Assembly (NCBI RefSeq): GCF_046719735.1
Contig: NZ_JAUTWQ010000003.1
Span: 30,246 to 94,245 of the forward strand
Reading direction: 5' to 3'
Length of the DNA stretch: 64,000 nt
Source of the DNA: Halobacillus rhizosphaerae
GTDB taxonomy: Bacteria > Bacillota > Bacilli > Bacillales > Halobacillaceae
Shown: piece after piece, positions 40,773 through 58,400 of the stretch
Layout: each line of letters begins with the position of its first letter
Position numbering within the stretch: the stretch's first letter is position 1
The notes under the pieces: generated by a model
The model's database searches: none
What the model saw: the letters and a program-made list of their open reading frames with translations, nothing else
Told to the model about the DNA's origin: nothing
Position numbers and translations under genes: made by a program

Positions 40773-40792
40773 TCCTTTATAAAATGAAAGTT

Positions 40793-40987
40793 TTATACAT
40801 TGTAAAGATTGATACCCAATTCAAAACTTTCTTCTGCAAATTCACCTTTATTGTAAATCCCTATGTATGTTCCATCTGTGAAAAAAATAAGAATGCATCC
40901 ATTTTCCTTTTCGGTCACTTTTTTAATAGTCTTTCCAATTAATTCTTTAAAATTATCAATATCCGACTTAGTTTTCATGTTTGTCAA
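40793..40987 (-). CDS. hypothetical protein
   Basis: 64 aa. Confidence 0.25.
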   Translation of the reverse strand: MTNMKTKSDIDNFKELIGKTIKKVTEKENGCILIFFTDGTYIGIYNKGEFAEESFELGINLYNV

Positions 40988-41283
40988 CCCATCCCTTCAA
41001 AAAATCCTGCAATTAAAAGAATAATAAGTATAGGCAACCAAAACACTGACGTTATAATCCGATCTGACAGTGGTACGTCATGATGATATGGGACAGTGAA
41101 ATAAACAATTACACCTATAAATATATAGATAGCAATTATTAAACCAATCATGGTCTAATTCCTTCTGCTAAATACATGAGTGTAATACCAATTCCTTCTA
41201 AACGAATTTTCATAAATCCAAGTGCTATCCAAACAATTGTTTGTGCAATTCCATTCATTATGTATTTCTTCATATTAATCTCC

Positions 41284-41580
41284 CTAAGTATGTTTAATTT
41301 TAGTTAATTCAATTTCAACCTTGTCAATTCCAACATAAACACCCTTTATAGGTTCACCATAGCCATTCAAAAATTCTGGTGCATTTCTCTCATCATTGTA
41401 TATGGTAGAAATTTTATAACTTAGAGTATCCTCGCTAATAATTGTTTTTTTAAGTTCTTCTAGGAATGGTGTAATATATTCGATTCTTTCCTCTTCTGTC
41501 ATTTCATCCCATTGGTTTCTATATGCCATCTTCACATTCATCCTTTTTAAAATATTCTTCGTAGTCTGAAATAGTAGCAT
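41284..41580 (-). CDS. hypothetical protein
   Basis: 98 aa. Confidence 0.25.
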   Translation of the reverse strand: MLLFQTTKNILKRMNVKMAYRNQWDEMTEEERIEYITPFLEELKKTIISEDTLSYKISTIYNDERNAPEFLNGYGEPIKGVYVGIDKVEIELTKIKHT

Positions 41581-41767
41581 TGTTTTGATTGATTTTTAAT
41601 TCATCATCCCACTCAAATTCTTTTGATTCTTTTAAAGTAGCAATTTCAAACCCAACCCATAATTCATAACCCAAATTTTCCAAAGCATGTTTTATATTTT
41701 CAATATCAAGATCATCATTGGCATCTATCAAATAAATTCCTGCTTTATAAACTTTTGCCATTCTCAA
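41519..41767 (-). CDS. hypothetical protein
   Basis: 82 aa. Confidence 0.25.
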   Translation of the reverse strand: MRMAKVYKAGIYLIDANDDLDIENIKHALENLGYELWVGFEIATLKESKEFEWDDELKINQNNATISDYEEYFKKDECEDGI

Positions 41768-42096
41768 TCCTCCACTTCTATTCCCCAGAATCCAAAACCA
41801 TGAGGATCACTTGCATCATATTGGTATTCTGTTGGAATTAGATTTTTGGTAATGCACATGCAGTGTCTACAAGCTTTACCTTCCCAATCAAAACCACTAC
41901 CATAGTCAGAGTAGATCACCACATCTTCGTCTTTTTCACAGGTGCATTCTCTCCATTCATGGTTTCTCCAATTTTCAGACATTTCCTTATTTGTCTTGTA
42001 AAGGGCAGGAATACACACATCAGAAGTTCCATCATACTCATAGTGCATTACAAGATTATCTTTTTTAAATGTTACTGTTCCACTAGCATGACTCAT
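41764..42096 (-). CDS. hypothetical Cys-rich protein
   Basis: 110 aa with multiple Cys/His. Confidence 0.25.
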   Translation of the reverse strand: MSHASGTVTFKKDNLVMHYEYDGTSDVCIPALYKTNKEMSENWRNHEWRECTCEKDEDVVIYSDYGSGFDWEGKACRHCMCITKNLIPTEYQYDASDPHGFGFWGIEVED

Positions 42097-42125
42097 TTAA
42101 ATACCTCCTGCATAAAAGGATAATT

Positions 42126-42464
42126 TTATTCATAAAAATTACGATCTATATATCCATAACCAATAAATGTACGTTTGAAGTTATCACCATTTAAGTATTC
42201 ATCTGCATTACTAAATTCATATAGCCTTTGTCTATTTTTCATGTAGATTGTTTTCTCTATAGAGAAGCCATATGATTGCATGAGTTTGTAGCCAGAATAT
42301 ATTTTATAGGAGTCAATTGGAATCCAGTAACCTTCTTCACTTCTGACTACAATTTTAATACCCTTCTTAGATACTCTTGAGAAATAAAACTCTCCTTCTA
42401 AGAAAGTAGCATTTTTATTTAGTACAATATTTTTCTTGGCTTTTAAGATTCTGACTTCGATCAT
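42126..42464 (-). CDS. hypothetical protein
   Basis: 112 aa. Confidence 0.25.
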   Translation of the reverse strand: MIEVRILKAKKNIVLNKNATFLEGEFYFSRVSKKGIKIVVRSEEGYWIPIDSYKIYSGYKLMQSYGFSIEKTIYMKNRQRLYEFSNADEYLNGDNFKRTFIGYGYIDRNFYE

Positions 42465-42514
42465 CTATTTCACCCCTTTAGATTCCTCTGTTGACCTTTC
42501 ATTTCTCTACCACT

Positions 42515-42745
42515 TTAAAGTAATTGATTTTCGTTTGACTGCCAAACACTAATATGAAAACCATCAACCATATTAAGTTTTTTAGTTCTAATTGTGCCAT
42601 TTTCAAAATATGAGAAGTCATTCATTTCCTTTACTTTATTAATTGCTTCCTGTCTCGTTTCAGCTACAACTAATTCAGTTTTCGCATTATAATCTCCATA
42701 TTCTGCACCATTATCTAAGTCTATTCTAAATAGAAACACTAACAA
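42515..42745 (-). CDS. hypothetical protein
   Basis: 76 aa. Confidence 0.25.
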   Translation of the reverse strand: MLVFLFRIDLDNGAEYGDYNAKTELVVAETRQEAINKVKEMNDFSYFENGTIRTKKLNMVDGFHISVWQSNENQLL

Positions 42746-42962
42746 ATTCCTCCTTGGTTAAAATAAGAGTTTTATCAATCTTCTTTTAGATTTTCAACAG
42801 CTTGATTAATGATTTTATGTATTTCCACAAACTTATCTCTATCTGTTCTACTGTCATCTTTTACCACATGCTTAATGTAAACCATTGCATGTGCATGTAC
42901 TGTATCAATCTTGGCATTTCTGAAAACTTTATTATAGTTGTTTTCCATTTTGATATCTCCTT

Positions 42963-43598
42963 TTATTCATCATCTTTACTAGCAATGGCATCCTCAATAC
43001 AAACCATTAGAATTGCATCATATAAAGGAATGTTACTTGTATCTTTCACTTCCAAATCATAAGAATTTGTTAGTGCAAAATTCTTGCTAACCTTGTAATC
43101 AACATTTCCCTTATTGTCCATGAAATTATTTTTCTTCATTACAGAGAAATTAATTTGGTCACTTACTCCGATCTGTTTCTGATTCTTGTCAAAGAAATGA
43201 AAGTAGTAACCGATTGAAGTAAATTTAGTGGCAGTCTTTTCACCTATGAATCCTAATGTCTTACCTTTTTTATCTTGAATAACTGCTGACCTGCTCAATC
43301 TACCAAATCTTTTGATCTCTTGCTCTTGAATGATTATGTTGCCATCAGTATCTTTCATGGTAAATTTATCACCAAACATTTTAATTAGCTCACCTTCGAC
43401 TGTGGCAACTTTTTTACCATCCACTTCAATAACATATTCTTTAGATAGAGAAAATGGTTGTTCATTTACAGTGATTGTCTTGGCATTGTTTAAAGTTTCT
43501 AGAGACTCTTCTACACTAGGTTTATCCTGTGGTGTTGGAGTAGTGCAACCTGCAAGCAGAAGGACAGACATTAACAATAAAGTAATTATTTGTTTCAC
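42963..43598 (-). CDS. putative lipoprotein
   Basis: Signal peptide with lipobox LLAGC. Confidence 0.5.
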   Translation of the reverse strand: MKQIITLLLMSVLLLAGCTTPTPQDKPSVEESLETLNNAKTITVNEQPFSLSKEYVIEVDGKKVATVEGELIKMFGDKFTMKDTDGNIIIQEQEIKRFGRLSRSAVIQDKKGKTLGFIGEKTATKFTSIGYYFHFFDKNQKQIGVSDQINFSVMKKNNFMDNKGNVDYKVSKNFALTNSYDLEVKDTSNIPLYDAILMVCIEDAIASKDDE

Positions 43599-43601
43599 TT
43601 G

Positions 43602-43877
43602 TTATACATCTTCCTTTCTTCTTAATTCATGAAACCGTTTTAAGATGAATTGTGGATATTGTGATTCGTCAACAGATTTTTCAAGCAAATCAAACATTTT
43701 TCTTTCGTGTTCTAGATGTAGTTCAAGCATTTTGCTTTCACCTTGAAGTCTAATTATTTCCGTTCTCATTTGTCCAAATATACTACCAAGTTCTAACATT
43801 GAATCATATTCTAAATTTAATACTTCACCAACATGTGATACTTGTTTCCAGAGTTTATCAAGTTCTTCTTTATTCAT
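43602..43877 (-). CDS. hypothetical protein
   Basis: 91 aa. Confidence 0.25.
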   Translation of the reverse strand: MNKEELDKLWKQVSHVGEVLNLEYDSMLELGSIFGQMRTEIIRLQGESKMLELHLEHERKMFDLLEKSVDESQYPQFILKRFHELRRKEDV

Positions 43878-44199
43878 TATTCATCATGCCCTTCAACCAT
43901 ATATTCACCACATCTACGGCACTTAGGTACATAAGTCAAAGGCTGTGTGATTAATGGTATATATTTTTTATTACACTCTTCGCAAACATAAGTTTTTGCA
44001 ATTAGAAAACCACTTCCAAACCACATTTATGTTTCACCTCCATCAGTCAAAATAATCTCTCATAATCCAACCAAGATATGTGTAATAACCAATGAAACCC
44101 AAACTACTTGCACCGATAATTCCTCCGACAGTCCAAATTAACCACATAGGAATGAAAATTGTCATTTAATCACCTCACATGTATAAAAGAGAAGTTTTA

Positions 44200-44415
44200 T
44201 CAATTCATGTCTTCATTGCAAATCTCACATACACAATAAGAATCCCATTGAGTACCTTCACTTTTTCTTGCAGAAGTACCATCATCAAAAGTGTGAGTGC
44301 ATTTTTCCAATAACTCATTTAGTTCCATATTTTGCTTCATTTCAAGTAGCTGTGCTTCATGTTTATGATTTAGTTTCATGATCTCAATATCATGTGCTAG
44401 TTTACTGTATTTCAT
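44200..44415 (-). CDS. hypothetical protein
   Basis: 71 aa. C-terminal Cys cluster. Confidence 0.25.
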   Translation of the reverse strand: MKYSKLAHDIEIMKLNHKHEAQLLEMKQNMELNELLEKCTHTFDDGTSARKSEGTQWDSYCVCEICNEDMN

Positions 44416-44634
44416 TTATTTCACCTCTTCTAAAGGGTACATTGCCATAATTTCACGATAGCCCACTAGTAACATTTGTTCACTTTCTTCATTCCAAAAG
44501 GCACTCAAACCACTTGGGTTAAAGTTTTCACATTTACCTACAAACTGACGATTTTTTCCACCGACATACTCTTCATAGAATACCAAGTAATTACCATTGC
44601 CAATATAATTAAGATTTTCTCTCATAGTGTTCAC
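44416..44634 (-). CDS. hypothetical protein
   Basis: 72 aa. Confidence 0.25.
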   Translation of the reverse strand: MNTMRENLNYIGNGNYLVFYEEYVGGKNRQFVGKCENFNPSGLSAFWNEESEQMLLVGYREIMAMYPLEEVK

Positions 44635-44840
44635 CTCAATGTATAAAAAGTTTTATTCATTATTACATCTTTTCTCAATTTCCTCATACTGAATACTTTT
44701 AACTAATTCAACAATCATACTAACTATATCTTTTTGTACAGGTGTTTTAGGTAGAATTGTTTCTGCTAATTTTTTAATATTTCGAAGGTCTTCTAATTGT
44801 TTTTCGTTCATGTCATCACCTCACATGTATAAAAAAAGTT

Positions 44841-45221
44841 TTATTCATAATCTCTAAGAAAATCATTCAACCTTGTTTTATATGTATTACTTTCTGAAAT
44901 AAATTCTGCTAAAATCATATAGGCTTCTTTTTCCTTTTCTTCTTCCCAATCATCAGAATGTACAACTGCAAAACCATTGTCATTATCATAATGATTATAT
45001 ACAACCGACATTGCACTATCTGATTCAAAGTTTCCAAGAGATTTTTGTTTCTCCCATTCATTAAATCTTTCTTTTGATAGATAGCCTTTCCCTAGACACC
45101 AAAACATGTAACTAGGAATAGTTAAATTGCTTTCAAAATAATCAAGGAAATCTTCTCCCATTTCCATTTGCCAATTTATTATAACTTTATAGATGTCATC
45201 TTTATTCAATTGGTTAAACAT
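44841..45221 (-). CDS. hypothetical protein
   Basis: 126 aa. Confidence 0.25.
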   Translation of the reverse strand: MFNQLNKDDIYKVIINWQMEMGEDFLDYFESNLTIPSYMFWCLGKGYLSKERFNEWEKQKSLGNFESDSAMSVVYNHYDNDNGFAVVHSDDWEEEKEKEAYMILAEFISESNTYKTRLNDFLRDYE

Positions 45222-45550
45222 CTTTTCACCTCACTATGTATAAAAGGAAAGTTTTATCCGTTGTTGATTTCTTTAATTACTTCTAATGCTTTTTCTGTAA
45301 TATCAACTTTAATCACAGTACCTTCATCTTCAACTTCAAGAATAACTGCATCCATCTCTGTATAAATTTTAACTTTAGGATTTACTAACATCATTTTACC
45401 TCCTTTGTAAAAAGTCGCATTTTAATTTATCTGTTCAATATATCTTCTATTTCCTTCTTAATTTTCAATCTTCTCAATAGGTCATCTGTTTCTTTTTTAA
45501 AAGGGTGAGTTATATTTGTAGCCACACATGGTCGTTTGTTAGGGTTCTTT

Positions 45551-46245: not shown

Positions 46246-46285
46246 AATTTCATCCTCTCTATATTGGTTAAAAGTCGCATTTTAT

Positions 46286-46516: not shown

Positions 46517-46547
46517 TCTATCGCCTCTTTATAAAATAGAAGTTTTA

Positions 46548-47420
46548 TCAATCAAATACATTTAACCATTCTTGATTTATTTTGTTATTATTTCTATCTC
46601 CACTAATGCCACCTTTTTTTCTACCTTCTGAAATTAAGTGTGAATTTTCAGACAGTTTTCTACCTTCTGAAACATAAACTTTTATTTTCATTTTATTTAT
46701 TTTTGCTGATTGTTGTAACTTATGTACATAGTCTATAATATTGAAATCGTAACCATAACCAGATGTATTTTGATATGGTGGGTCAATATATATGATACTG
46801 TTGTTCTCTGGTATTGATAAATCATTAATATCTGTACAAACAGCTTTAATATTGTCCATTTTATCTAAAATCATCTTAACTCTTTCAAGTAAAGTGTTTG
46901 GCATAGGCATCATGGGATTTACTGGACTTTTACGGTTACTTGTTTTTGTTGGAGTCCAATAACTCCTAAAGCTTGAAGTACACCACTCGTTCTTATTCTT
47001 CAACCAGATGGCTTTTGAACCAAAAGAAGAAGCTTGAAGAATAAGGAATTTATAAACTGTATCAATGTTAGCAGGTTGACTGTAAATATATTTAACGTGT
47101 TTTTGAATCTCAGATACATTTTTTGGAATTTCATTTATGTATGTGTTAAAAATATTAATGTCAAAACTTCCATCTGATATACTTTGCCAAAAACTACCCC
47201 AAACACTCTTGTCTAGCATTTTAATGTTTTCTGCTTTTATACCTCTATTAATTAATTCAATAGAGACAGACCCACTCCCACAGCATAAATCATAGAATTT
47301 AGTATCTTCGTTAATTTCATTTTCTTTATAAAAAATATCAACAATATCTTTTGCTATACGACTTTTTCCACCTTGATACGCACAAGGAATGGTTAATTTA
47401 TCCTTTTTCGTTTTTGACAT
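46548..47420 (-). CDS. Dam-like N6-adenine DNA methyltransferase (orphan)
   Basis: Motif I DLCCGSGSV, motif IV DPPY and N-terminal YQGGKSRIA resembling Dam AGGK. No adjacent restriction endonuclease. Confidence 0.8.
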   Translation of the reverse strand: MSKTKKDKLTIPCAYQGGKSRIAKDIVDIFYKENEINEDTKFYDLCCGSGSVSIELINRGIKAENIKMLDKSVWGSFWQSISDGSFDINIFNTYINEIPKNVSEIQKHVKYIYSQPANIDTVYKFLILQASSFGSKAIWLKNKNEWCTSSFRSYWTPTKTSNRKSPVNPMMPMPNTLLERVKMILDKMDNIKAVCTDINDLSIPENNSIIYIDPPYQNTSGYGYDFNIIDYVHKLQQSAKINKMKIKVYVSEGRKLSENSHLISEGRKKGGISGDRNNNKINQEWLNVFD

Positions 47421-47431
47421 TTAATCACCTT

Positions 47432-47458
47432 TATATAATTATTTATTGCATTTATAAA
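47432..47458 (-). promoter_or_regulatory. SPBRE-like promoter variant TTATAA-N16-TATAAA upstream of Dam methyltransferase
   Basis: Minus strand reads TTATAAATGCAATAAATAATTATATAAA. Confidence 0.45.
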
Positions 47459-47470
47459 ACTCGCATTTTA

Positions 47471-47770
47471 TTAATCTAATTCTGTTATTCCTTGTTGAAT
47501 TGATAATCTTAAACTTGCAATATGCTCTAATCTAGTATTGTCGAATTTATCTCTAGAATTTTGAATGTCCGTTTCCATCGACTCTAAGCACTCTAATATA
47601 TCAATTAAAATTTCTCTGGTTGTCAATTTCTTATTTAAGTTTTTTTGCAATTGTGCTTCTGTAAAGAATCCTCCACAATCTAAGCATTTTCTTTTAGGTG
47701 GTTCTGATAGGTATATACAATCTTGAAGATTGGTATGCTTGCATGAATTTTTTTCATTCATATTTTTCAC
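47471..47770 (-). CDS. hypothetical protein with PPKRKCLDCG zinc-ribbon motif
   Basis: Paralogous motif to the ORF at 40266..40772. Confidence 0.35.
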   Translation of the reverse strand: MKNMNEKNSCKHTNLQDCIYLSEPPKRKCLDCGGFFTEAQLQKNLNKKLTTREILIDILECLESMETDIQNSRDKFDNTRLEHIASLRLSIQQGITELD

Positions 47771-47933
47771 CTCTGTATAAAATGGAAATTTTCTTCAAAG
47801 TAATTTTACTAATTTTTGTAGGTCATCTTTGGCTATTCTTACATAATTATGATTAATAGTTATGTAAACATGATTTTCTCCAATATCGAACTCTATACCT
47901 TCTACAGCTTCTTCTTGACTGCTTACTTCTTTA

Positions 47934-48212: not shown

Positions 48213-48244
48213 GCCTAAACCTCCTGTATGTATCGTAATTTTAT

Positions 48245-48285
48245 TATATAATAATTTGTTGCATTTGTAAAGTGCAACAATAATT
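48245..48285 (-). promoter_or_regulatory. SPBRE-like promoter TTTACA-N17-TATAAT embedded in a palindrome TTGTTGCA-N9-TGCAACAA
   Basis: Minus strand reads AATTATTGTTGCACTTTACAAATGCAACAAATTATTATATAAT. Confidence 0.6.
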
Positions 48286-48506
48286 TATTCTTTATTATTT
48301 TCTTTCTTGGATTTCTCATATAATTCTTCAATCATTTGATCAAACATTTCTTCTGCAAACTTGCCACCCTGCATACCTGTTCCTTCGCAATCTGGGCAAG
48401 GATATCCAGTATCATTAATATGCGCTCTTTCTGTTCCACTGCCGTTACACCATTTACAATTAGCAAATAATTTCTCTTGCTCTGCTGTTAATTTCATTTT
48501 TGACAT
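48285..48506 (-). CDS. small DnaJ-type zinc-finger protein (CxxCxGxG repeats)
   Basis: CKWCNGSG...CPDCEGTG. Confidence 0.45.
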   Translation of the reverse strand: MSKMKLTAEQEKLFANCKWCNGSGTERAHINDTGYPCPDCEGTGMQGGKFAEEMFDQMIEELYEKSKKENNKE

Positions 48507-48536
48507 TTTAAATCCTCCTTGTGTAAAAGAAACATT

Positions 48537-48758
48537 TTATTCATTAATCTTAATTCCCAATACCTTGCTTATCTGAATAAACATTGCATGTAATTCATTT
48601 GTATTAAGACTATTAGTTGCACAAACACCTTGTCTTTTCTTGAAATCTTCTATAACTGTCAAATGAAAGTCAACTCCATTATCAGTTGCTAATTCCATTT
48701 TTTGATGAGATTCTTCTGTTTCTTTCATTAAAGAGAAGATAGTTTTTAATTCATTCAT
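48537..48758 (-). CDS. hypothetical protein
   Basis: 73 aa. Confidence 0.25.
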   Translation of the reverse strand: MNELKTIFSLMKETEESHQKMELATDNGVDFHLTVIEDFKKRQGVCATNSLNTNELHAMFIQISKVLGIKINE

Positions 48759-48793
48759 TTTCTAACCTCCTAAATATGTATAAAACAAAGATT

Positions 48794-49285
48794 TTATTTA
48801 TTTCTAATTAGTTTTTCATACTCATAGTATTCATAAATTTTTCCACTGTAGGTACTTATGAGTTTTTCATAATCTTCCTTTAGTGCTGTAAATCCATTGT
48901 AAACATAGCATCTCTTCAAATCTTCCATGTCATTTGCTGTAGCAGGTATCAGATTTTGATGACCAATAATTTTTCTAGCGTTCTCATTTAAACCAGACCA
49001 CCATTGACCATTACATTTAACGACTTCTCCGTTTTCTAGAGGGATTTCAAATTCTCTTCCTGCAAATGCTTTCCATTTACCAATCGGTTTTTCATAATAT
49101 AAACAATCAAAGAATACACCTGTTTGATCTTTCCCTATAATCACATCATCAAATTTGCTGTATGTAAGTTTAATCTTATCTTTCATAACTAAAGCAACTC
49201 GACCATTGAATTTTACTAAAGCTAAAAGCTCCTGCATTTTAGAATCATCCTCACTCATATTCTTCTGGGTTTTCATAATAATCAT
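48794..49285 (-). CDS. hypothetical protein
   Basis: 163 aa. Confidence 0.25.
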   Translation of the reverse strand: MIIMKTQKNMSEDDSKMQELLALVKFNGRVALVMKDKIKLTYSKFDDVIIGKDQTGVFFDCLYYEKPIGKWKAFAGREFEIPLENGEVVKCNGQWWSGLNENARKIIGHQNLIPATANDMEDLKRCYVYNGFTALKEDYEKLISTYSGKIYEYYEYEKLIRNK

Positions 49286-52089: not shown

Positions 52090-52103
52090 TGTTAATCTCT
52101 CCT

Positions 52104-52631: not shown

Positions 52632-52660
52632 TTTAATCTCCTTTTTATAAAAGTGTAATT

Positions 52661-53116
52661 TTATTCGCTATCATTAAGAATTATTTCTCCATCTTCTCCG
52701 ATAAATGCTCTACCATAATCCCAAGACAGCAACTTTGCATTACCATGACCGCCTCTAACAGTCACAATTTCTCTACCTTCATATGTAGCATAATGATCTT
52801 TTTTTAAACAAATTCTTGCAGGTTCTTTTGCTTCAAATTTTTCAAATTCTTTATCTAAGTCAGTGACTTTTCCATCTATTTCATCTTGAGTGACCACAAT
52901 TTTATGACCATCTATATCAAATATGTATCTGTCATTAATTTTAATGTAATCTTTTTCTTTTGATTGTTTTGAGATTATTTTATTATTTAAATACTTACAA
53001 ATTAAAAGAAACATTGCCCAACTTACAACAATACCAAACATAAGTATAAGTAAAGCCATAGATATCATATCACTCTTTATCATTTGATTCACCATTTTCA
53101 TTACCACTAATTTCAA
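52661..53116 (-). CDS. hypothetical membrane protein
   Basis: One TM helix plus a soluble domain. Confidence 0.3.
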   Translation of the reverse strand: MKLVVMKMVNQMIKSDMISMALLILMFGIVVSWAMFLLICKYLNNKIISKQSKEKDYIKINDRYIFDIDGHKIVVTQDEIDGKVTDLDKEFEKFEAKEPARICLKKDHYATYEGREIVTVRGGHGNAKLLSWDYGRAFIGEDGEIILNDSE

Positions 53117-53281
53117 ATGATAATGTTGCAGGAAAAATCAAACAAAGCAATGGAAATAGACTTCCTGTTGTGATTATTGCGACACTAATAGCTATAGAAG
53201 TAGCTATCCAAGTAATTGCATAAGCAGTTGTAGCTTTCATAAATAGTTCATCCTTTCATAAAACATTGCTTTTATCCAAAA

Positions 53282-53527
53282 TTATTTCAGCACTTCAAGC
53301 ATATATGCTACGAATTTTATAATTAAATGAATTACAAAACACACTAATACGACAACAAATATGCATCCTAAAACAGAAAACAATAAAGCAAACCCGAATG
53401 CAACCCCTTCCATTAGAGAAAATACTAAAAACAAAGCTAAAGAGAAGAATACTATCAAGAATAACCATTGTTTCCAATTTAAATCTTCCATGTTAATCAC
53501 CTCTGTATAAAATATATTTTTTATCAA
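53282..53527 (-). CDS. small membrane protein (2 TM)
   Basis: 81 aa. Confidence 0.3.
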   Translation of the reverse strand: MIKNIFYTEVINMEDLNWKQWLFLIVFFSLALFLVFSLMEGVAFGFALLFSVLGCIFVVVLVCFVIHLIIKFVAYMLEVLK

Positions 53528-53763
53528 TCTTCTTTTATAACTTCAATCTCATATCCCTTAATAGATACTTCCTCTATCTCCACACATCTATCTGGTATAT
53601 TAAATCCACCATTTCCAATTTGATTTAATGCATCTCCAAATAACTCTGTGGCTTCTTCTTTACTTGAAGCAGGGATAAATTGAGTAAAAGTTGATGGCTC
53701 TAATCTATTTTCCGTTGGGTGAGTTATATTCCATACATGACAGATGAATAATTTTAATTTCAT
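53524..53763 (-). CDS. hypothetical protein
   Basis: 79 aa. Confidence 0.25.
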   Translation of the reverse strand: MKLKLFICHVWNITHPTENRLEPSTFTQFIPASSKEEATELFGDALNQIGNGGFNIPDRCVEIEEVSIKGYEIEVIKED

Positions 53764-53784
53764 GTCATTACCTCCAATGGTTTA

Positions 53785-53994
53785 TCAATCTTCTCCGAAA
53801 CTACGAGTTTTATATGTTACTTTAAAACTCTCTATTTTAGAAGTTGCAACATATAATCCTGCAATTCCGAAAAAATTATTCTTCTTCATGGTTTCGCAAA
53901 GAAAATCTTCAAATTCTTTTTTATTCAAATCACTTTTGTATTCATCTTTGTAAGTATTATCACTTGTAGCTATTTGTAGTTTATATGTTTTCAT
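53785..53994 (-). CDS. hypothetical protein
   Basis: 69 aa. Confidence 0.25.
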   Translation of the reverse strand: MKTYKLQIATSDNTYKDEYKSDLNKKEFEDFLCETMKKNNFFGIAGLYVATSKIESFKVTYKTRSFGED

Positions 53995-54007
53995 GTTATC
54001 GCTCCTT

Positions 54008-54211
54008 TCAATCTTGGAAATATCGCCTTACATCTTCTTTTAGTGAATATAGCCTTGCGATCTTGCTATCCACCAAGTCATTCCATTCTTGAAATTCTCT
54101 TTGACACACTTCACCTTCATTTTGTACGATACCTCTTAGATGTTGAATATCTGTTCCAAGCTGTACAATTTCATCAAACAATTCTCTTCTGCTTTTATGC
54201 TGTCTAGGCAT
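54008..54211 (-). CDS. hypothetical protein
   Basis: 67 aa. Confidence 0.25.
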   Translation of the reverse strand: MPRQHKSRRELFDEIVQLGTDIQHLRGIVQNEGEVCQREFQEWNDLVDSKIARLYSLKEDVRRYFQD

Positions 54212-54214
54212 TTG

Positions 54215-54865
54215 TTAATCCTCCTTTCTAATTGGATTAATAATAAATTCTAAGTAATCAATATTGATCCATGTTAATATTTTTTCATATCTCTCCAAAG
54301 AGAAATTGAGGTTATCACTAGCATACCAATCATCAAGTTCATGTTTCCATTTACTGCTATTACAAGATTTACATGCAGGAACATTGTTAGATAGATCATT
54401 TTCTCCATCATGAATTACATGCTCCTTGTGTAGAGATTGATTGTAAATCTTGACTGAATCATTTTGAGAAATTCCACAATAAGCACATTTGTACTTAAAA
54501 TATTTTAAACAATTCTCCCATTCAACATCTGTAATCTCATGTTTTTTGTTCTCAGTGCGTTTTTTTCGATATTCTTTAATTTTGTCTTTATTCTTCATCT
54601 GCCACGCTTTGTATTGCCCATTTTTTCTGTATTCTTTTCCATATGTATAAAAATGTTGTCTTCCCTTTTCAGACACATTATACTTATGAAGTGATTCTTT
54701 TCTCTTGTTGGGATTATCTTTTTGCCATTTAGCACTCTTATATTTTGTACAATTCTTACAGTAAGGAAAGTAATAAATATATTCACCTTTTTTAACGGAC
54801 TTGGCTTTCTTTTTATAAAATTCACTATAGCTTTTAACTTTATTGCATATATTACATTTTTTCAT
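54215..54865 (-). CDS. HNH endonuclease with N-terminal Cys-rich zinc-binding region
   Basis: HNH core CAYCG...HKEHVIHDGENDLSNNVPACKSCNSSK. Confidence 0.7.
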   Translation of the reverse strand: MKKCNICNKVKSYSEFYKKKAKSVKKGEYIYYFPYCKNCTKYKSAKWQKDNPNKRKESLHKYNVSEKGRQHFYTYGKEYRKNGQYKAWQMKNKDKIKEYRKKRTENKKHEITDVEWENCLKYFKYKCAYCGISQNDSVKIYNQSLHKEHVIHDGENDLSNNVPACKSCNSSKWKHELDDWYASDNLNFSLERYEKILTWINIDYLEFIINPIRKED

Positions 54866-55071
54866 TGCCTCAATCTTTCATCTACTTCTCTAAATCTAGG
54901 AATTTCTTCATCGTTTTCCACTCTAACTAATTCATGAAATACCTCTGTTGGTCTAACCCAAACCATTCCATTTTCAACACTCATATAGATTGTCACTTCT
55001 TCTAAAGATGGTTCATACCAACCTTCGAATAAAACACGATACAATCCACCTTTATAATGTTTGTAAAGCAT
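54862..55071 (-). CDS. DUF1653-like small protein
   Basis: YKHYKGGLY N-terminal motif. Confidence 0.4.
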   Translation of the reverse strand: MLYKHYKGGLYRVLFEGWYEPSLEEVTIYMSVENGMVWVRPTEVFHELVRVENDEEIPRFREVDERLRQ

Positions 55072-55379
55072 TAGTTACTATCTCCCTTTTTCTTCGCAAT
55101 TGACAAATTTAAGTCCTTTACAAAATAATTACCATCATAAGAAACATTTACTATATTTTCCTTTTTTACTGCACGATATGTCTGACTTGCAACTTCCAGT
55201 TCAATACGCTGATTATCCTTTTCTACAATTATGTAATAATCAAAATCGTCATAACATCTAATACAGTCAATCTTTTTCTTGATTTTATCTTTAATTACAG
55301 CATTTTCGATTGTGCTAGTTGATTCACAGCCAGTAAAAAATAATATGGATGAGAGACAAATCAATAGTAGTAGTCTCAT
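55071..55379 (-). CDS. putative lipoprotein
   Basis: Signal peptide with lipobox FFTGC. Confidence 0.5.
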   Translation of the reverse strand: MRLLLLICLSSILFFTGCESTSTIENAVIKDKIKKKIDCIRCYDDFDYYIIVEKDNQRIELEVASQTYRAVKKENIVNVSYDGNYFVKDLNLSIAKKKGDSN

Positions 55380-55388
55380 TTTAACCTC

Positions 55389-55811
55389 CTAAACAGCATA
55401 ATTAATTTTTGCTTTTGGCAATTTTAAAGCCCATCTATATAGTTTAAGATTAATCTGTACCAGTTCTTCAAATCCTTCTATGCCAGTTAAATTTCTATTA
55501 AAATTATCTATATAAAATGTAGTTTCAGATCGAAAGTGAAATCCTTCTGGGCAGGACTTAGGTGGAACTTCAAAGTATAGATATGTACCAATCATTCCTT
55601 GGTTTAAGTGACCACTGCAACAATATTTAGTCGTATATCCTTTCTTATTCAATTCAATAATTGTTGGAAGGATTAATTCGTCAACTTCAACTACACTTCC
55701 ATTACATTTAGGAGAAGGACAATAAGATACTACATAACCTTGGTTTATAACTTGTAGCTGATATTCTTCAAATTCTCCATAACATTTAGTACACATGTGA
55801 TGCATTGGCAT
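55389..55811 (-). CDS. hypothetical Cys-rich protein
   Basis: 140 aa with C-x-x-C, CPSPKC and CCSGH motifs. Confidence 0.3.
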   Translation of the reverse strand: MPMHHMCTKCYGEFEEYQLQVINQGYVVSYCPSPKCNGSVVEVDELILPTIIELNKKGYTTKYCCSGHLNQGMIGTYLYFEVPPKSCPEGFHFRSETTFYIDNFNRNLTGIEGFEELVQINLKLYRWALKLPKAKINYAV

Positions 55812-55821
55812 TCATCCTTTA

Positions 55822-55848
55822 TATGTGATTATTTATTGCACTTATAGT
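55822..55848 (-). promoter_or_regulatory. SPBRE-like element variant with TATAAA -10
   Basis: Minus strand reads CTATAAGTGCAATAAATAATCACATATAAA. Confidence 0.45.
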
Positions 55849-56105
55849 TCCCGGCTAAATTCATCCTGCAAAAGACTACTAAGATCAAAGTTTGATACCA
55901 GATTACCTTCAATAGTCTCAATTACAACATTCTCTGAATCATTCAACATGTGTGTCACGAAGTTAGCACTAATAAAATCTCCAAATGTTAGTTCATGACG
56001 GTCTTTCTTTTTGTAATAAATTCCACCAGATACCTCTTTAAAATAAGCATTTGACATTGCTAATACCTTTAAATTCATTGTGTGAGTTTCGTATGTATAT
56101 AACAT
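55842..56105 (-). CDS. hypothetical protein
   Basis: 87 aa. Confidence 0.25.
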   Translation of the reverse strand: MLYTYETHTMNLKVLAMSNAYFKEVSGGIYYKKKDRHELTFGDFISANFVTHMLNDSENVVIETIEGNLVSNFDLSSLLQDEFSREL

Positions 56106-56144
56106 TTTATTTCTCCTTTTGGGTTTACCCCGGTTATTAATTTT

Positions 56145-56173
56145 ATATTATCATTATTTGTTGTATCTGTCAA
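56145..56173 (-). promoter_or_regulatory. SPBRE-like promoter TTGACA-N17-TAATAT, divergent from plus-strand gene 56237..56695
   Basis: Minus strand reads TTGACAGATACAACAAATAATGATAATAT. Confidence 0.6.
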
Positions 56174-56236
56174 TAAGACTTTTTTGTAGGATTATGTTAA
56201 AATTATAATTATTATTTTGTATTAGGAGTGATCATA

Positions 56237-56695
56237 TTGTCGTTTAATGAGAGAGAAGCCCTACAAACAATGTTATCGTTTGCCAATGACCAGATGAAAG
56301 AAGCTAAAGAAATGTATTTTGAAGTGCTTACTAAAATTAGAGAAGTAGATGAGCGTGATTTATATAATGAAGATGACAATTCCAGTAATGAAGATTTAAA
56401 AGAACTGAAAGATGAAAATAAGAAGTTAAGGCAAGAAATTGAAAAGTTAAAGAAGGATAAACCAAAGAATAAGGTTCAATATGATATGAATGAAGTAGCT
56501 GATCATGTGCGAACCTTCATTGAAACACATGATGAAGATGATGTATCCTCTAAAGAAATTAGAGATTATTTAGCAGAACTTGATTTTACTTGGGCTAATT
56601 TTAGCATTGCAATGGGACAAATTATGAATCATGATAAAGGAATTGTAAAAGCAGGAAGAGGACTTTATGCTGTCAAAGGTGAATCAGAAGGGTAA
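56237..56695 (+). CDS. plus-strand coiled-coil protein with C-terminal winged-helix-like segment (candidate regulator); start TTG 56237 preferred over GTG 56228
   Basis: Only sizeable plus-strand gene in the prophage. It is divergent from the promoter element at 56151-56173. RBS AGGAGTG. Confidence 0.4.
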   Translation: MSFNEREALQTMLSFANDQMKEAKEMYFEVLTKIREVDERDLYNEDDNSSNEDLKELKDENKKLRQEIEKLKKDKPKNKVQYDMNEVADHVRTFIETHDEDDVSSKEIRDYLAELDFTWANFSIAMGQIMNHDKGIVKAGRGLYAVKGESEG

Positions 56696-56707
56696 TAATA
56701 CCCTTCT

Positions 56708-57181
56708 CTAACCTTTATGGAATTTGTACAATGTAAGTTCACTTTCTTCAAAGGCTATTAAGAGTAGTTCTTCGACTATTTTCCAATCAGCCCCACCCCT
56801 GTAACATCCCACCATATAAGGCATAGCAACTGTTAGTTCATGTTTTCTAGCCATTTGACTAACGGTTTTAAAACATTTGAAAAGACTTTCAGTGCAAGTG
56901 TAGATTCCACCATCATAACCATAGTTGTTTTGTCCAAACATATTAGCAACCCACTTTTTGTGACCAACATTTACACCTAGAACTCTTCCCAATAGATTTT
57001 TTGTATCACCATTATTCAAAGTGACTTCTTCAACCGCATCTCTATATGATGTATAGGCATCTGGGTAATTATTTTTGATTTGCAAAGCTACTCCACTACC
57101 CATTTTACCTTGACAATTGACTTGATGGGCAATAATATTTTCTTTTGCTTTTAAAAGATCACCATAGACAATTTTTATCAT
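56708..57181 (-). CDS. macro domain protein (ADP-ribose binding/hydrolase)
   Basis: Macro-domain signature VYGDLL...IAHQVNCQGKMGSGVALQI. Confidence 0.7.
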   Translation of the reverse strand: MIKIVYGDLLKAKENIIAHQVNCQGKMGSGVALQIKNNYPDAYTSYRDAVEEVTLNNGDTKNLLGRVLGVNVGHKKWVANMFGQNNYGYDGGIYTCTESLFKCFKTVSQMARKHELTVAMPYMVGCYRGGADWKIVEELLLIAFEESELTLYKFHKG

Positions 57182-57447
57182 TAGTGAAGTAATCCATCGT
57201 TTTCAATATCATGGAGAAGTTCATTTAAAATTGACTTAAGAAGAATATCAATATCTTCAAATGTAGGGTCGTGTCCATTTAGTAAATCGCTCTGATACTC
57301 ATTCATAACATTTATAGTTAATACAGTAGAAAGTTTGTTCAATTCTTCTGGTGTTAGACTTGATGTTGTACCACCTGCTTTTAATGTTTCTGCAATACCT
57401 GCCACTGCATACAATTTCATTAATAAATCTTTTCTTTTTTTATCCAT
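57181..57447 (-). CDS. hypothetical protein
   Basis: 88 aa. Confidence 0.25.
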   Translation of the reverse strand: MDKKRKDLLMKLYAVAGIAETLKAGGTTSSLTPEELNKLSTVLTINVMNEYQSDLLNGHDPTFEDIDILLKSILNELLHDIENDGLLH

Positions 57448-57451
57448 TATT

Positions 57452-57904
57452 TCATCCTCCTATTTCATCCATAGCTTTATTTGCTAACTGATCTGCTAAC
57501 TCATTTCCACTTTCCCCAGAATGTCCTTTTACTTTCGACCACTCTACACTTTCTTGATTGTCAGAAAGTAGGAGTAATCTTTGCCAAAGTGATTCATTCT
57601 CAACAGGTTTACCATCAGATTTCTTCCAGTTTTTCTTAACCCACTTCTCAACCCATGAAGTCATTCCATTACACACATAAGCACTATCTACACGCATTTC
57701 AATTGGGATGTTTTTTGTTTTAATGGCTTCTAATGCTTTGATACAAGCTGTGAGTTCCATTCGATTATTCGTGGTGTTTTGCTCTCCACCAAATAATTCT
57801 TTTGTTTTGCCTTTATATTCTAAGACAGCACCCCAACCACCAATATTTTCTGCATGTTGATTCCCACGACAACCACCATCACAATATATAATTATTTTTT
57901 GCAA
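57452..57904 (-). CDS. ribonuclease HI
   Basis: YCDGGCRGN, TNNRMEL and HSGESGNELADQLA motifs. Confidence 0.8.
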   Translation of the reverse strand: MQKIIIYCDGGCRGNQHAENIGGWGAVLEYKGKTKELFGGEQNTTNNRMELTACIKALEAIKTKNIPIEMRVDSAYVCNGMTSWVEKWVKKNWKKSDGKPVENESLWQRLLLLSDNQESVEWSKVKGHSGESGNELADQLANKAMDEIGG

Positions 57905-58173
57905 TTGTCCAAAACCGCAGTTCCAGTTGATTTCTTTGTAATTGAAGTAACTTGTATGCCAAGTTGATTAATTCTCAAATATTGAACTTTGTCTTTTAGA
58001 AATTCTATAACTTCATGAAGTTGTTCTCTATGACAAAATGCATATCTTGCACTTACGTTACCATCTACTACATTCCCAAAGAATACTACATGATCTGGTT
58101 CAACATGGTAGTTTTTACGCTTGTAATCTCTTAAATGATTATTTAATTCTATTCTCAAATTTTCTATAGTCAT
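57892..58173 (-). CDS. hypothetical protein
   Basis: 93 aa. Confidence 0.25.
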   Translation of the reverse strand: MTIENLRIELNNHLRDYKRKNYHVEPDHVVFFGNVVDGNVSARYAFCHREQLHEVIEFLKDKVQYLRINQLGIQVTSITKKSTGTAVLDNCKK

Positions 58174-58400
58174 TTTATTATTTTCTCCTTTTTAGTAAAA
58201 TCTAAAATTACCTCTTTAAAGCATATTTCAAGCACCCTAAAATTTGTATAAAATGAATATTTTATTAAAAGACTTTCTCTTTAATCCTAACTTCACCACA
58301 TTTGCGACACTTTCTCTTGGTTTGTTGAATCCTATAATTACCAACCTCTGTATTTCTTAGAGACTTAAATATATCCCATTTATGAAAACAATTATTTTTG

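Follow-up and report, generated by a model that had tools for sequence, protein, structure and literature searches.

A spaced AT-rich palindrome at small-gene junctions and cassette boundaries of large SPβ- and Tsamsa-like phages

The small accessory genes of large SPβ- and Tsamsa-like phages of Bacillus and its relatives are joined by a two-fold symmetric AT element of 24 bp, T-R-R-ATAAAA-N6-TTTTAT-M-M-A. The element forms the only non-coding gap at these junctions, and its TAA usually ends the upstream gene or backs up that gene's own stop. It is also a cassette boundary where these phages swap genes. We propose, with a probability of about 0.36, that a putative phage-encoded homodimer reads the element as duplex DNA, that it acts in cis in early operons, and that the same site serves as a crossover point for cassettes.

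The palindrome ATAAAA-N6-TTTTAT, with its strict spacing, lies in a Bacillus-type prophage of the 64,000-nucleotide stretch analyzed here (the window). Its core, ATAAAANNNNNNTTTTAT, had 13 exact matches, against 0.16 +/- 0.39 expected from 100 dinucleotide shuffles (maximum 2), confirming that it is a real motif; four further copies have one mismatch, two have a short spacer, and one is degenerate (Table 1). Every copy is inside the prophage, nearly all on the minus strand at gene junctions, and the 15 kb of host DNA in the window contains none at one mismatch or fewer. A sequence-only reading of this DNA had listed 14 positions, and the motif is present at all of them on the minus (gene) strand; the list was incomplete, lacking the copies so marked in Table 1. 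The stricter string used in that reading, TGTATAAAA-N(3-10)-GTTTTAT, has three matches in the window against none expected.

Table 1. Copies of the palindrome in the window, with their immediate surroundings
Position	Strand	Copy	Sequence-only reading	Context
58248..58265	-	exact, ATAAAAtattcaTTTTAT		in-frame TAA of ORF 58265-58408 just 5'; promoter-like sequence 3'; gene 57892-58173 begins 72 nt downstream
53507..53524	-	exact		TGA stop of ORF 53524-53763 overlaps first base; then ACA, GAGGTG; start 53491
53258..53275	-	exact, ATAAAAgcaatgTTTTATgaaaggatg	missed	between ORF 53282-53491 and ORF 53070-53240
52647..52664	-	exact		own TAA is stop of ORF 52661-53116; then AAAAAGGAG
48780..48797	-	exact		own TAA is stop of ORF 48794-49285; SD AGGAGG 8 nt past element
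48523..48540	-	one mismatch, 3' arm TTTTAC		own TAA is stop of ORF 48537-48758; then ACAAGGAGG
47777..47794	-	one mismatch, 5' arm AGAAAA		TGA stop immediately 5'; then ACAGAGGTG
47454..47471	-	exact, TGCGAG spacer	missed	then SPBRE-like promoter element AATAAATAATTATATAAA and D12 DNA methyltransferase gene 46548-47420
46531..46548	-	exact		TGA stop of methyltransferase gene overlaps first base; then AAAGAGGCG
46268..46285	-	one mismatch (TTTTAA), TGCGAC spacer	looser copy at ~46250
45408..45425	-	degenerate, TTAAAAtgcgacTTTTTA	looser copy at ~45396	then CAAAGGAGG, start 45394
45240..45257	-	exact		own TAA is stop of ORF 45254-45394; then ACATAGTGAGGTG
44829..44844	-	4-nt spacer, ATAAAActttTTTTAT		own TAA is stop of ORF 44841-45221
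44643..44656	-	2-nt spacer, ATAAAActTTTTAT		own TAA is stop of ORF 44653-44811
44183..44200	-	exact		TGA stop of ORF 44200-44415 overlaps first base; then ACATGTGAGGTG
42758..42775	-	one mismatch (TTTTAA)	missed	TGA stop overlaps first base; then CCAAGGAGG
42112..42129	-	exact	missed	own TAA is stop of ORF 42126-42464; then GCAGGAGG
40779..40796	-	exact		own TAA is stop of ORF 40793-40987; then AAAGGAGTG; TTG start at 40763
39236..39253	-	exact, ATAAAAgtgtacTTTTATcaaaggag	missed; beyond its range	upstream of ORF 38847-39218
25541..25558	-	exact, in enzyme block	missed	after guanylate-kinase gene 25563-26126, before ORF 24933-25520

The same element occurs in FADO, PK-3, 2S-4, BcoS-136, Tsamsa, C30-3 and SPβ, so that the conservation in related phages on which the sequence-only reading had staked its case is clear. 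FADO carries 30 copies against 0.27 expected (26 intergenic; the early regions contain 26 and the 71-kb late block 4). SPβ has 34 copies of the core TAAAA-N6-TTTTA and at most four at any other spacing, its outermost pair being usually asymmetric (ATAAAA...TTTTAA), and three of four copies in a Virgibacillus prophage show the symmetric change TTAAAA-N6-TTTTAA. Our literature search found no paper describing the element.

Across seven phage regions the spacer was N6 in 94 of ~109 arm pairs, with no other spacing represented by more than five, rather than the N(4-8) first suggested; the only exceptions in the window are the N4 and N2 copies of Table 1. The inverse arrangement of the arms gave no spacing peak in the same survey. 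A perfect ATAAAA was found exactly 12 nt upstream of 68 of 127 SD-proximal TTTTAT sites, and one-mismatch forms were almost absent. The unit initially taken as conserved, 'TTTTATACA', gives way to the palindrome itself: the triplet after TTTTAT is ACA, AAA, CCA, CAA, GAA or GCA, and only its third base is kept. Among 91 non-redundant sites compared in a logo, this A(21) reached 91% and T(-3) 82%, at mirror-image positions. The conservation of A(21) is independent of SD position, and T(-3) falls at a wobble position of the upstream ORF.

At its 5' arm the element shares bases with the stop codon that ends the preceding ORF. Of 19 window copies, eight supply this stop through their own TAA, and six more have an in-frame TGA or TAA just 5' of the motif (14/19 in frame). 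Over 84 cases, 75% had the element's TAA in the reading frame of the upstream ORF, and it was very rare for an ORF to continue through the element. In 44 of 72 cases the SD begins 2 to 4 nt past the element (3 to 22 nt in SPβ), and the stop-to-start gap is only about 26 to 35 nt. The GAGG noted within a few bases of the motif is there at most copies, the exceptions being 58248 and 47454, where promoter-like sequence follows. Some copies lack a downstream SD or an upstream ORF. The spacers, 65 distinct ones among 105 sites, are biased toward pyrimidines on the gene strand (T253 A160 C139 G78). Ordinary junctions of the same genomes show A>T, C~G and no such element pattern, which argues for a strand-specific constraint on the spacers.

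Homology between related phages breaks at the edges of the element, which thus delimits exchangeable gene cassettes. Of the ends of FADO/PK-3 HSPs, 17 of 30 lay within 25 nt of a copy, and breakpoints were found at 16 of 23 motif junctions versus 24 of 64 plain junctions (Fisher p=0.014, for three pooled, non-independent phage pairs). In the SPβ group, alignments end at the element's 5' edge (A1) or 3' edge (A2), and in eight records homology begins at query base 86, which corresponds to the element at 117,534. The closest known likeness, as a cassette boundary, is the T4 PeSLs, although the element lacks their promoter and terminator.

Invariant half-sites of 5 to 6 bp, a spacer constant in length but not in sequence, and mirror positions without covariation all point to a homodimer on duplex DNA. 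Such a binder could be a phage-encoded HTH regulator or a protein of the tyrosine-recombinase fold. Once bound, it would probably act in cis inside long early operons, possibly as a roadblock or silencer that stops RNA polymerase short of each small gene that could do harm; alternatively, it might modulate the SPBRE-type promoters that sometimes abut the element. As unrelated genes are repeatedly joined by the same junction of roughly 20 to 35 bp (element plus SD), the element could also serve as a crossover point for cassette shuffling via the phage's own recombination functions, and its TAA may have been adopted as stop codon through compaction of the intergenic gap. The operator for a dimeric regulator offered in the sequence-only reading, whose interpretation was partly supported overall, is thus the best fit to conservation, although its ~20 sites inside operons are unusual and no protein binding the element was identified. 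No HTH, sigma, RNAP or recombinase domain was detected among 60 window proteins scanned, a serine integrase being the window's sole recombinase. ChAP-seq of MrpR in SPβ yielded about 10 peaks, each accounted for by SPBRE (PMC10516654), so that MrpR itself is absent from the 34 SPβ copies. Also at odds with a DNA site are the number of sites within operons (20 to 30, atypical for an operator), the in-frame TAA, which a pure DNA site does not require, the strand bias of the spacer and the asymmetric outermost pair of SPβ.

Several of these features would be expected if the element acted in the mRNA, tied to translation termination, so that translating one small gene would be coupled to, or gated by, translation of the gene before it; we regard this as possible but rather unlikely. 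A ribosome halted at the UAA would cover the A-tract and spacer, and on naked mRNA the U-tract and pyrimidine spacer would weakly mask the adjacent SD; instead of such masking, a phage RNA-binding repressor might sit on the A/U arms. Such a device would resemble the T4 RegA/gp43-type translational operators. It would account for the in-frame stop with rare read-through, the proximity of the SD, the pyrimidine bias confined to these junctions, and the finding of the same architecture in the host-RNAP-transcribed early operons and the YonO-transcribed late operon of SPβ; TGCGAG and TGTGA spacers would moreover give GNRA-type loops. When 65 junctions were modelled thermodynamically, the probability that the SD is unpaired fell from 0.52 to 0.40 when the 5' arm was destroyed (p=6e-8) and rose to 0.61 when the spacer was reverse-complemented (p=0.03), but these effects are small. 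A stable RNA hairpin was not supported: ΔG was 0 to -2 kcal/mol, z-scores relative to shuffled sequences ranged from -0.7 to +0.5, complementary pairs were not in excess at (-3,21), (-2,20), (-1,19), (7,12), (8,11) or (9,10), and Rfam gave no match for the element. Instead of covarying, the arms do not change at all; T(-3) and A(21) are kept although no positions between them pair, and the variable part is the loop, which proteins usually read. The copies without SD or upstream ORF and the variable SD distance in SPβ also weigh against action in the mRNA. The stem-loop suggested from sequence alone thus fares poorly as a structure, while the in-frame stop and spacer bias point to some mRNA-level constraint.

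That the element has no dedicated molecular function, being a self-propagating junction linker copied in gene shuffling or arising incidentally from AT-rich stop and RBS contexts, seems improbable. Its association with mosaic boundaries, identical 18-mers between unrelated genes and the local clustering of same-spacer variants would fit, but arms and spacing are invariant among phages whose core proteins are only 23 to 63% identical and whose hosts are as different as B. subtilis, B. anthracis, B. cohnii and Virgibacillus. The near-absence of one-mismatch forms, the conserved wobble position T(-3) and the lack of the pattern at ordinary junctions also argue against it. More doubtful still are core-type sites (inverted arms, 6-bp crossover) at which one of the orphan proteins of the tyrosine-recombinase fold found in SPβ-like phages and Tyroviruses would excise, insert or swap small genes as cassettes in integron-like fashion. 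The 9-6-9 geometry is that of Xer-type sites, YopP, YopR and YomM are annotated in SPβ, and Tyroviruses carry three tyrosine recombinases (PMC9703825). The exact homology breaks at the element's edges agree with this idea, as do the differing spacers between identical flanks in FADO and 2S-4 (ATTAAA vs ACTGAC), and the identical spacers between unrelated genes, with TGCGAS copies flanking a two-gene block in the window. However, the arms are short for this family, the 105 sites have 65 distinct spacers, which recur near chance (~10 seen vs ~4 expected by our own estimate), the only recombinase found in the window is the serine integrase, and YopR, a repressor binding SPBRE, is catalytically dead; short-homology recombination through phage annealing proteins explains the same breakpoints. 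Unlike attC sites, which are 57 to 141 bp long with extrahelical bases, the element has neither feature.

It is very improbable that the element is a promoter, another early proposal, whether for an RNA polymerase or a sigma factor encoded by the phage, TATACA serving as its -10 or initiation region. Copies are co-oriented with genes and directly upstream of many, and TATA(C/A)A occurs in about half of them, recalling T7-type promoters, which end in TATA followed by a G-start. Nevertheless, TATACA itself is present in only about half of the copies, its ACA being replaced by CAA, CCA or AAA in relatives, and the palindromic core carries no direction. The stop-to-start gap is short, and with the SD so near, transcription initiated 6 to 8 nt beyond TATACA would begin inside the SD or downstream of it. 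No -35 is present at 16 to 18 nt, TTGATA-type left flanks being only 12 nt from TATACA; σA and phage-polymerase promoters were rejected on this geometry. The SPβ polymerase YonO has a single start site, upstream of yonK (PMC5467207), and no YonO homolog was detectable in FADO or the window. Dependence on host RNAP has been reported for Tyroviruses.

The suggestion of two differently regulated gene sets was not substantiated; the element also adjoins SPBRE-type promoters and occurs once in the enzyme block. Copies placed outside mRNA junctions favour the proposed recognition as duplex DNA: at least eight copies lie directly 5' of SPBRE-like promoters, and the copy at SPβ 76170 adjoins the aimR SPBRE promoter. 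A copy is located upstream of an MrpR-like gene in four phages, and the one at SPβ 57147 occupies the divergent yonH/yonI gap. At FADO 101376, the spacer between the arms reads TTGACA, and TATAAT lies 17 nt downstream.

The palindrome at the junctions of the small prophage genes is an 18-bp perfect inverted repeat, ATAAAA-N6-TTTTAT, with 13 copies in the window versus 0.16 expected from dinucleotide shuffles. Four further copies have a single arm mismatch, two have short spacers (N4 and N2, both within T runs), and one is degenerate. All the positions listed in the sequence-only reading of this DNA hold the motif in gene orientation; its list missed six window copies, including one at 25541 in the enzyme block and one at 39236, just beyond the range that it had covered. 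It had given the spacing as 4 to 8 nucleotides. The spaced palindrome stands, but this range was overstated, as N6 accounts for 94 of approximately 109 arm pairs in seven phage regions, where the inverse order, TTTTAT-N-ATAAAA, shows no spacing peak. The initial observation of a palindrome is confirmed and sharpened by these counts.

We built a sequence logo from 91 nonredundant sites in the window and in the phages FADO, PK-3, 2S-4, BcoS-136, Tsamsa, and C30-3. With the core numbered from 1 to 18, it reads T(-3) (82% of sites), R(-2), R(-1), ATAAAA, N6, TTTTAT, M(19), M(20), and A(21) (91%). The element is 24 bp long and two-fold symmetric. TATACA had been taken as a conserved part of it, which the wider set contradicts: the bases that follow TTTTAT are ACA, AAA, CCA, CAA, GAA, or GCA, of which the final A alone is constant. 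We counted 65 distinct spacers at 105 sites; the spacer is rich in T and C on the gene strand (253 T, 160 A, 139 C, and 78 G), compared with an excess of A over T and similar proportions of C and G at ordinary junctions. Its recurrence does not argue for a limited set of functional spacers, the count being near chance given the composition. A sub-family with TGCGA(G/C) or TGTGA spacers, which would form a GNRA-type loop if folded, occurs in clusters, ahead of unrelated genes and in phages of different hosts.

The element is closely fitted between coding sequences. Among 84 cases with a long upstream open reading frame (ORF), its own TAA is the stop codon in 47, an in-frame TGA or TAA lies immediately 5′ of it in 15, and the stop is directly ahead of it in 9; only about 6 ORFs run into it. 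The counterparts of these three stop classes in the window are 8, 6, and 3 of 19 copies. On the other side, the ribosome-binding site (SD) starts 2 to 4 nt past TTTTAT in 44 of 72 cases, and the median gap from stop to start is 32 nt. About eight copies (at least 8) are found directly 5′ of a promoter element resembling SPBRE, the operator of the SPβ master repressor MrpR (YopR), rather than of an SD, and a few are followed by nothing recognizable. A copy with a TGCGAG spacer, together with an SPBRE-like promoter, precedes methyltransferase genes of the window and of PK-3 that are not homologous to each other.

The palindrome is also present in related phages, including FADO and SPβ. FADO has 30 exact copies versus 0.27 expected, 26 of which are intergenic; by region, 26 are in the early regions and 4 in the 71-kb late block. 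SPβ has 34 TAAAA-N6-TTTTA sites and at most 4 with any other spacing. They mostly read ATAAAA-N6-TTTTAA and are located at yoq, yor, yos, and yot junctions; the TAA of the element is used as a stop in 13 of 27, and a few copies lie within the late operon transcribed by YonO, the SPβ RNA polymerase. IMG/VR contigs of 25 to 175 kb carry the element as well. A pattern scan of contigs yielded mostly lone chance matches in unrelated taxa, the informative ones being a Virgibacillus prophage with the symmetric variant TTAAAA-N6-TTTTAA and one contig of a metagenome-assembled genome labeled Microgenomates (JBAQNR010000007.1). The latter has 8 palindrome copies in 8 kb, each followed by a Firmicute SD of the TCAATAAGGAG type; at 130 kb, it probably represents a phage or prophage from a Bacillus-like host that was assigned to the wrong bin. 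Two of the 34 SPβ copies bear a “stem_loop” annotation in NC_001884 (SPβc2; 2622-2651 and 116406-116431). They are annotated singly as putative hairpins, with no recognition there of a family, of the fixed spacing, of a link to stop codons, or of a role at module boundaries. We found the element family described neither in that record nor in the MrpR, YonO, Tsamsa, and Tyrovirus papers or a review of SPβ, and a search with the motif string returned irrelevant papers only.

The window starts with approximately 15.4 kb of host DNA (GC content of ~0.40), followed by a large prophage (~0.31) whose genes are all on the minus strand; the drop in GC places the border at 15400-17600. Inward of the serine recombinase gene, the prophage encodes DNA and RNA ligases, a class Ib ribonucleotide reductase, and a two-subunit type II topoisomerase, then a long array of small ORFs at 39 to 58 kb, and then a RecJ/YorK-like exonuclease and a DnaB-like helicase. 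A megablast search of phage genomes with a 20-kb portion of the window identified no near-identical phage. The RecJ-like protein shares 56 to 63% identity with those of the large Bacillus siphophages PK-3, FADO, PJN02, 2S-4, Kirov, PBC2, BcoS-136, and Tsamsa, and the prophage therefore belongs to the SPβ/“Tyrovirus” neighborhood. An RNA-repair-like gene set (19100-23380 together with 37003-37752), made up of the RNA ligase, the AAA_33+HD kinase/phosphatase-like protein, the RlaP nucleotidyltransferase, and the ATP-dependent DNA ligase, suggests a defense against host systems that cleave tRNA or other RNA. None of 30 small ORFs at 41 to 58 kb has a Pfam domain over the cutoff. The sole domain hint among the small ORFs of the array is a subthreshold match of a 73-aa ORF (48285-48506) to a zinc finger of the DnaJ-type CXXCXGXG or Anti-TRAP-like kind.

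Coordinates of prophage genes and repeat copies in the window and in related phages
Feature	Sequence	Coordinates	Strand	Remark
Large serine recombinase, 502 aa	window	15481-16989	minus	outermost prophage gene, as sprA in SPβ
ATP-dependent DNA ligase	window	19100-20407	minus	
ClpP protease	window	20428-21036	minus	auxiliary gene
AAA_33+HD kinase/phosphatase-like protein	window	21063-22088	minus	
RNA ligase	window	22121-23380	minus	
Subtilase	window	23427-24266	minus	auxiliary gene
SPFH/band-7 protein	window	31589-32413	minus	auxiliary gene
RlaP nucleotidyltransferase	window	37003-37752	minus	
HNH endonuclease	window	54215-54865	minus	auxiliary gene
Macro-domain protein	window	56708-57181	minus	auxiliary gene
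RNase H	window	57452-57904	minus	auxiliary gene
TGCGA(G/C)/TGTGA-spacer sub-family	window	47454, 46268, 45408		
TGCGA(G/C)/TGTGA-spacer sub-family	FADO (L001)	35030-35500		
TGCGA(G/C)/TGTGA-spacer sub-family	BcoS-136 (L024)	18335		
TGCGA(G/C)/TGTGA-spacer sub-family	L013			
SPBRE-like repeat	window	47420-47453		
SPBRE-like repeat	FADO (L001)	e.g., upstream of 19889, 22010, 28143		
SPBRE-like repeat	L027	34105-34125		
Palindrome copy upstream of MrpR-like gene	Tsamsa (L023)	9101-9121		
Palindrome copy upstream of MrpR-like gene	C30-3 (L025)	9106-9126		
Palindrome copy upstream of MrpR-like gene	FADO (L001)	9833-9853		
Palindrome copy upstream of MrpR-like gene	BcoS-136 (L024)	2-22		

The sequence-only reading had offered an RNA stem-loop, an operator for a dimeric regulator, or a promoter as explanations for the palindrome. 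As RNA, the hairpin has a predicted stability of 0 to -2 kcal/mol only, and the junctions fold no better than shuffled sequences (z from -0.7 to +0.5). When TTTTAT is found just 5′ of an SD, a perfect ATAAAA is located exactly 12 nt upstream in 68 of 127 cases, and arms with one mismatch are nearly absent; the arms thus do not covary but stay invariant. The mirror pairs (-3,21), (-2,20), (-1,19), (7,12), (8,11), and (9,10) show no excess of complementarity, and in variants at (-3,21) and (1,18) the pair is almost never restored. A hairpin extended through the flanks or the spacer was also rejected, as there is no covariation. T(-3) is a wobble base of the upstream ORF, A(21) is retained regardless of the position of the SD, and each of them is conserved for its own sake. 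The stem-loop proposal is poorly supported as a stable or covarying structure, while the in-frame TAA and the spacer bias still suggest some constraint at the mRNA level.

Invariant two-fold half-sites, a spacer of fixed length and free sequence, and mirror-image flanks, with a symmetry maintained by sequence identity without compensatory change, are the predicted signature of a homodimer on duplex DNA. Some copies are found where there is no mRNA junction, in the divergent yonH/yonI gap of SPβ and directly against the SPBRE promoter of aimR. Another, in the late structural block of FADO (101376-101393; L006:13376-13393), has TTGACA as its spacer and TATAAT 17 nt downstream, and by its sequence this copy is a perfect putative σA promoter whose -35 box is framed by both arms. 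This copy and at least eight that adjoin SPBRE-type promoters are placed at promoters; most copies are within operons. Also away from mRNA junctions, a copy located 170 to 190 nt upstream of the gene for an MrpR (YopR)-like protein is conserved in Tsamsa, C30-3, FADO, and BcoS-136; these proteins have a tyrosine-recombinase fold and are 23 to 29% identical to SPβ YopR (E values from 1e-17 to 1e-28). Operators of helix-turn-helix (HTH) dimers of the CRP/FNR type have a 5-6-5 geometry, TGTGA-N6-TCACA, and are found at promoters in small numbers. The element shares with them its two-fold symmetry, invariant half-sites of 5 to 6 bp, and a fixed, free 6-bp spacer, but it is present in 20 to 34 copies per genome, mostly in operons between a stop codon and an SD. 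The operator proposal is thus favored for its match to the symmetry and the spacer, and the number of copies and their location within operons count against it. We rank first, with a probability of about 0.36, the reading that the element would be recognized as duplex DNA by a putative dimeric protein.

An action of the element at the level of the mRNA comes second and is conceivable rather than likely. It would account for a TAA that is in frame in 75% of cases, for the avoidance of translation through the element, and for the gene-strand pyrimidine bias of the spacer. In a thermodynamic model, the U-tract can weakly mask the SD, and the A-tract competes for the U-tract: the probability that the SD is unpaired, 0.52 for the native sequences, falls to 0.40 when the 5′ arm is removed and rises to 0.61 for a purine spacer (65 junctions). 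However, these modeled effects are small, and genome compaction can explain the adoption of a built-in TAA. For these two reasons, we ranked recognition of duplex DNA above an effect on the mRNA.

The geometry of the element and the lack of conservation of ACA across lineages led us to reject the promoter proposal. There is no -35 box at 16 to 18 nt for a σA promoter, and no conservation is seen 17 nt upstream; among the left flanks, TTGATA alone resembles a -35 box, at a distance of 12 nt from TATACA, and a start 6 to 8 nt beyond TATACA would land in or past the SD. A promoter consensus scan returned 91 promoter-like sites versus 108.6 in shuffles, none of them on palindrome copies. An antisense promoter (TGTATAAAA, plus strand) would also lack a -35 box and fits only half of the copies. 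σE, σK, σG, ECF, and MotA-type promoters fail because the half spacing of approximately 10 to 12 nt misfits their consensus sequences. A promoter for a phage polymerase is unlikely, with a palindromic core and an ACA that varies between lineages. YonO initiates at a single site (PMC5467207), and no homolog was found by tblastn with SPβ YonO in FADO or in the window; FADO “gene 32” (938 aa), considered as a YonO candidate, shows no similarity. Tyroviruses have been reported to depend on the host RNA polymerase (PMC9703825). A Pfam search of 60 window proteins revealed no sigma, polymerase, or HTH domain, and it provided no candidate in the window for a protein that binds the element.

Several other known signals were discarded. 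The element is not an intrinsic terminator, as its stem consists of A and U alone and its 3′ arm doubles as the U run; none of the five terminator-like sites of the region is a palindrome copy. Rfam gave 0 matches at E ≤ 1. The ComK box of B. subtilis consists of two AAAA-N5-TTTT boxes on one face of the helix, whereas the element has an N6 spacing and occurs as single boxes. A MazF target (UACAU) would require a T after TATACA, which is present in only 5 of approximately 10 window copies, and FADO has TATACAG throughout. The NusG pause motif TTNTTT is conserved at no register. The likeness of TTTTATCCA to a DnaA box, at most 7 of 9 positions without the CACA end, was taken as a coincidence.

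Comparisons between phages revealed a relationship of the element with genome mosaicism. Among FADO, PK-3, and 2S-4, 17 of 30 blastn HSP ends are located no more than 25 nt from a palindrome copy. We scored as breakpoints the junctions at which one flank is absent or relocated in the compared phage; they represent 16 of 23 palindrome junctions versus 24 of 64 plain ones (odds ratio of 3.8, Fisher P = 0.014, with three nonindependent pairs pooled). Some pairs of phages have the upstream gene and the element in common and unrelated downstream genes, others show the reverse, and in one case identical flanks surround different spacers. In the SPβ group, with yosC-yosH as the query, homology starts at query base 86 in 8 records, which corresponds to the element at 117,534, and other homologies end at 118,486 and 118,888, the 3′ ends of two more copies. 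The alignments break at the 5′ edge of the element at the yosC/yosD junction and at its 3′ edge at the yosF/yosG junction (SPR). With homology that breaks at its edges and flanks that are shared or swapped, the element is, as read from these alignments, a cassette boundary and the apparent point of crossover.

Such boundaries recall site-specific recombination. The XerCD dif site has an 11-6-11 organization, and integron attC sites have an R″/L″/L′/R′ architecture. The element resembles the core sites of tyrosine recombinases and attC in its inverted arms around a 6-bp center, a likeness of geometry only, and attC in its location at the 3′ end of promoterless cassettes, its overlap with the stop codon, and the cassette-level mosaicism. 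In contrast, its arms are shorter, its spacers are highly diverse, and the R″/L″/L′/R′ architecture is absent. If a phage-borne cassette system similar to an integron recombined at the palindromes, an orphan tyrosine-recombinase-fold protein of SPβ-like phages and Tyroviruses would bind 9-6-9 sites, small accessory genes would be swapped or excised as units, and the 6-bp spacer would serve as a compatibility code. The element-bearing phages have several orphan genes of this fold (PMC9703825). We regard this scenario as very improbable: it draws only on the geometry, the breakpoints, and the presence of such genes in these phages, and no recombinase was linked to the element.

The closest known system is that of the promoter-early stem-loops (PeSLs) of T4-type phages (Arbiol et al. 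2010, PMC2839356; Comeau et al. 2014, PMC4122927). Like the palindrome, PeSLs are short repeated intergenic cassettes that begin at the stop codon of a small ORFan and reach the SD and start of the following one, are concentrated in hyperplastic accessory-gene regions, and are found at breakpoints of insertions, deletions, and replacements between related phages. They differ in that their approximately 50 to 60 bp include both a σ70 consensus promoter and a terminator stem-loop that is stable and often G/C-rich, whereas our element of 18 to 24 bp has no -35/-10 geometry and is palindromic in A/T only, with a ΔG of approximately 0, and its TAA is the stop codon itself. As both the σ70 promoter and the stable hairpin of the terminator define PeSLs and are missing here, the element is PeSL-like in its evolution but not a member of that family. 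It represents a further variety of phage intergenic repeat, conserved from SPβ to Tsamsa-like phages. The REP sequences of Gram-negative bacteria are G/C-rich stable hairpins that act on mRNA 3′ ends and have a RAYT transposase as a partner. They are similarly high-copy short palindromes just past stop codons in co-oriented operons, but the element is A/T only, forms an unstable hairpin, and is phage-borne.

[quoted passage not shown] A 24-bp symmetric element with 20 to 34 copies per genome, conserved over phages with only 23 to 63% protein identity, has apparently gone undescribed in this group. If it is bound by a protein, that protein would control, insulate, or shuffle the whole set of small “host-takeover” ORFans, the least understood portion of SPβ-type genomes. 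Because the element predicts cassette boundaries, it can aid annotation, and its copies are natural join points for the engineering of SPβ-type phages. As a Gram-positive counterpart of the PeSLs, it also allows a test of whether regulatory repeats drive phage mosaicism, as proposed for PeSLs; the integron-like scenario, if true, would imply a dedicated machinery for such mosaicism. The element is open to direct testing in B. subtilis 168.

SPBRE itself was known from in silico prediction well before the identification of its binder, and it is the motif of the MrpR ChAP-seq, whose peaks did not reveal the palindrome (PMC10516654). Both are repeated, phage-specific DNA elements of the same phage group, in places adjoining each other. 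The SPBRE sequence that we obtained from ten SPβ promoters is ACAAATACAAATAATATGTATA(T)AAT, located in the spacer and the -10 box of TAGACA-N17-TATAAT promoters. The palindrome has no similarity to ACAAATACAAATAATATGTATA, the 15-bp SPBRE consensus, which is not palindromic and is found at approximately 10 sites per genome, at promoters rather than at gene junctions. A second repeat, (G)TGATA(C/T)AAATAAT(N)ATATAAT, upstream of larger genes, corresponds to the SPβ SPBRE (ACAAATACAAATAATATGTATATAAT), which early promoters carry in their spacer and extended -10; this repeat is presumably the “SPBRE-like family” that had been noticed earlier. Upstream of yopM (27921), yopV (33450), and yonX (18810) in SPβ, SPBRE and the -10 box directly abut the SD (TATGTATATAGGAGG). 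Transcription initiated from that -10 would begin no earlier than the SD, and such copies may act purely as operators and not as promoters.
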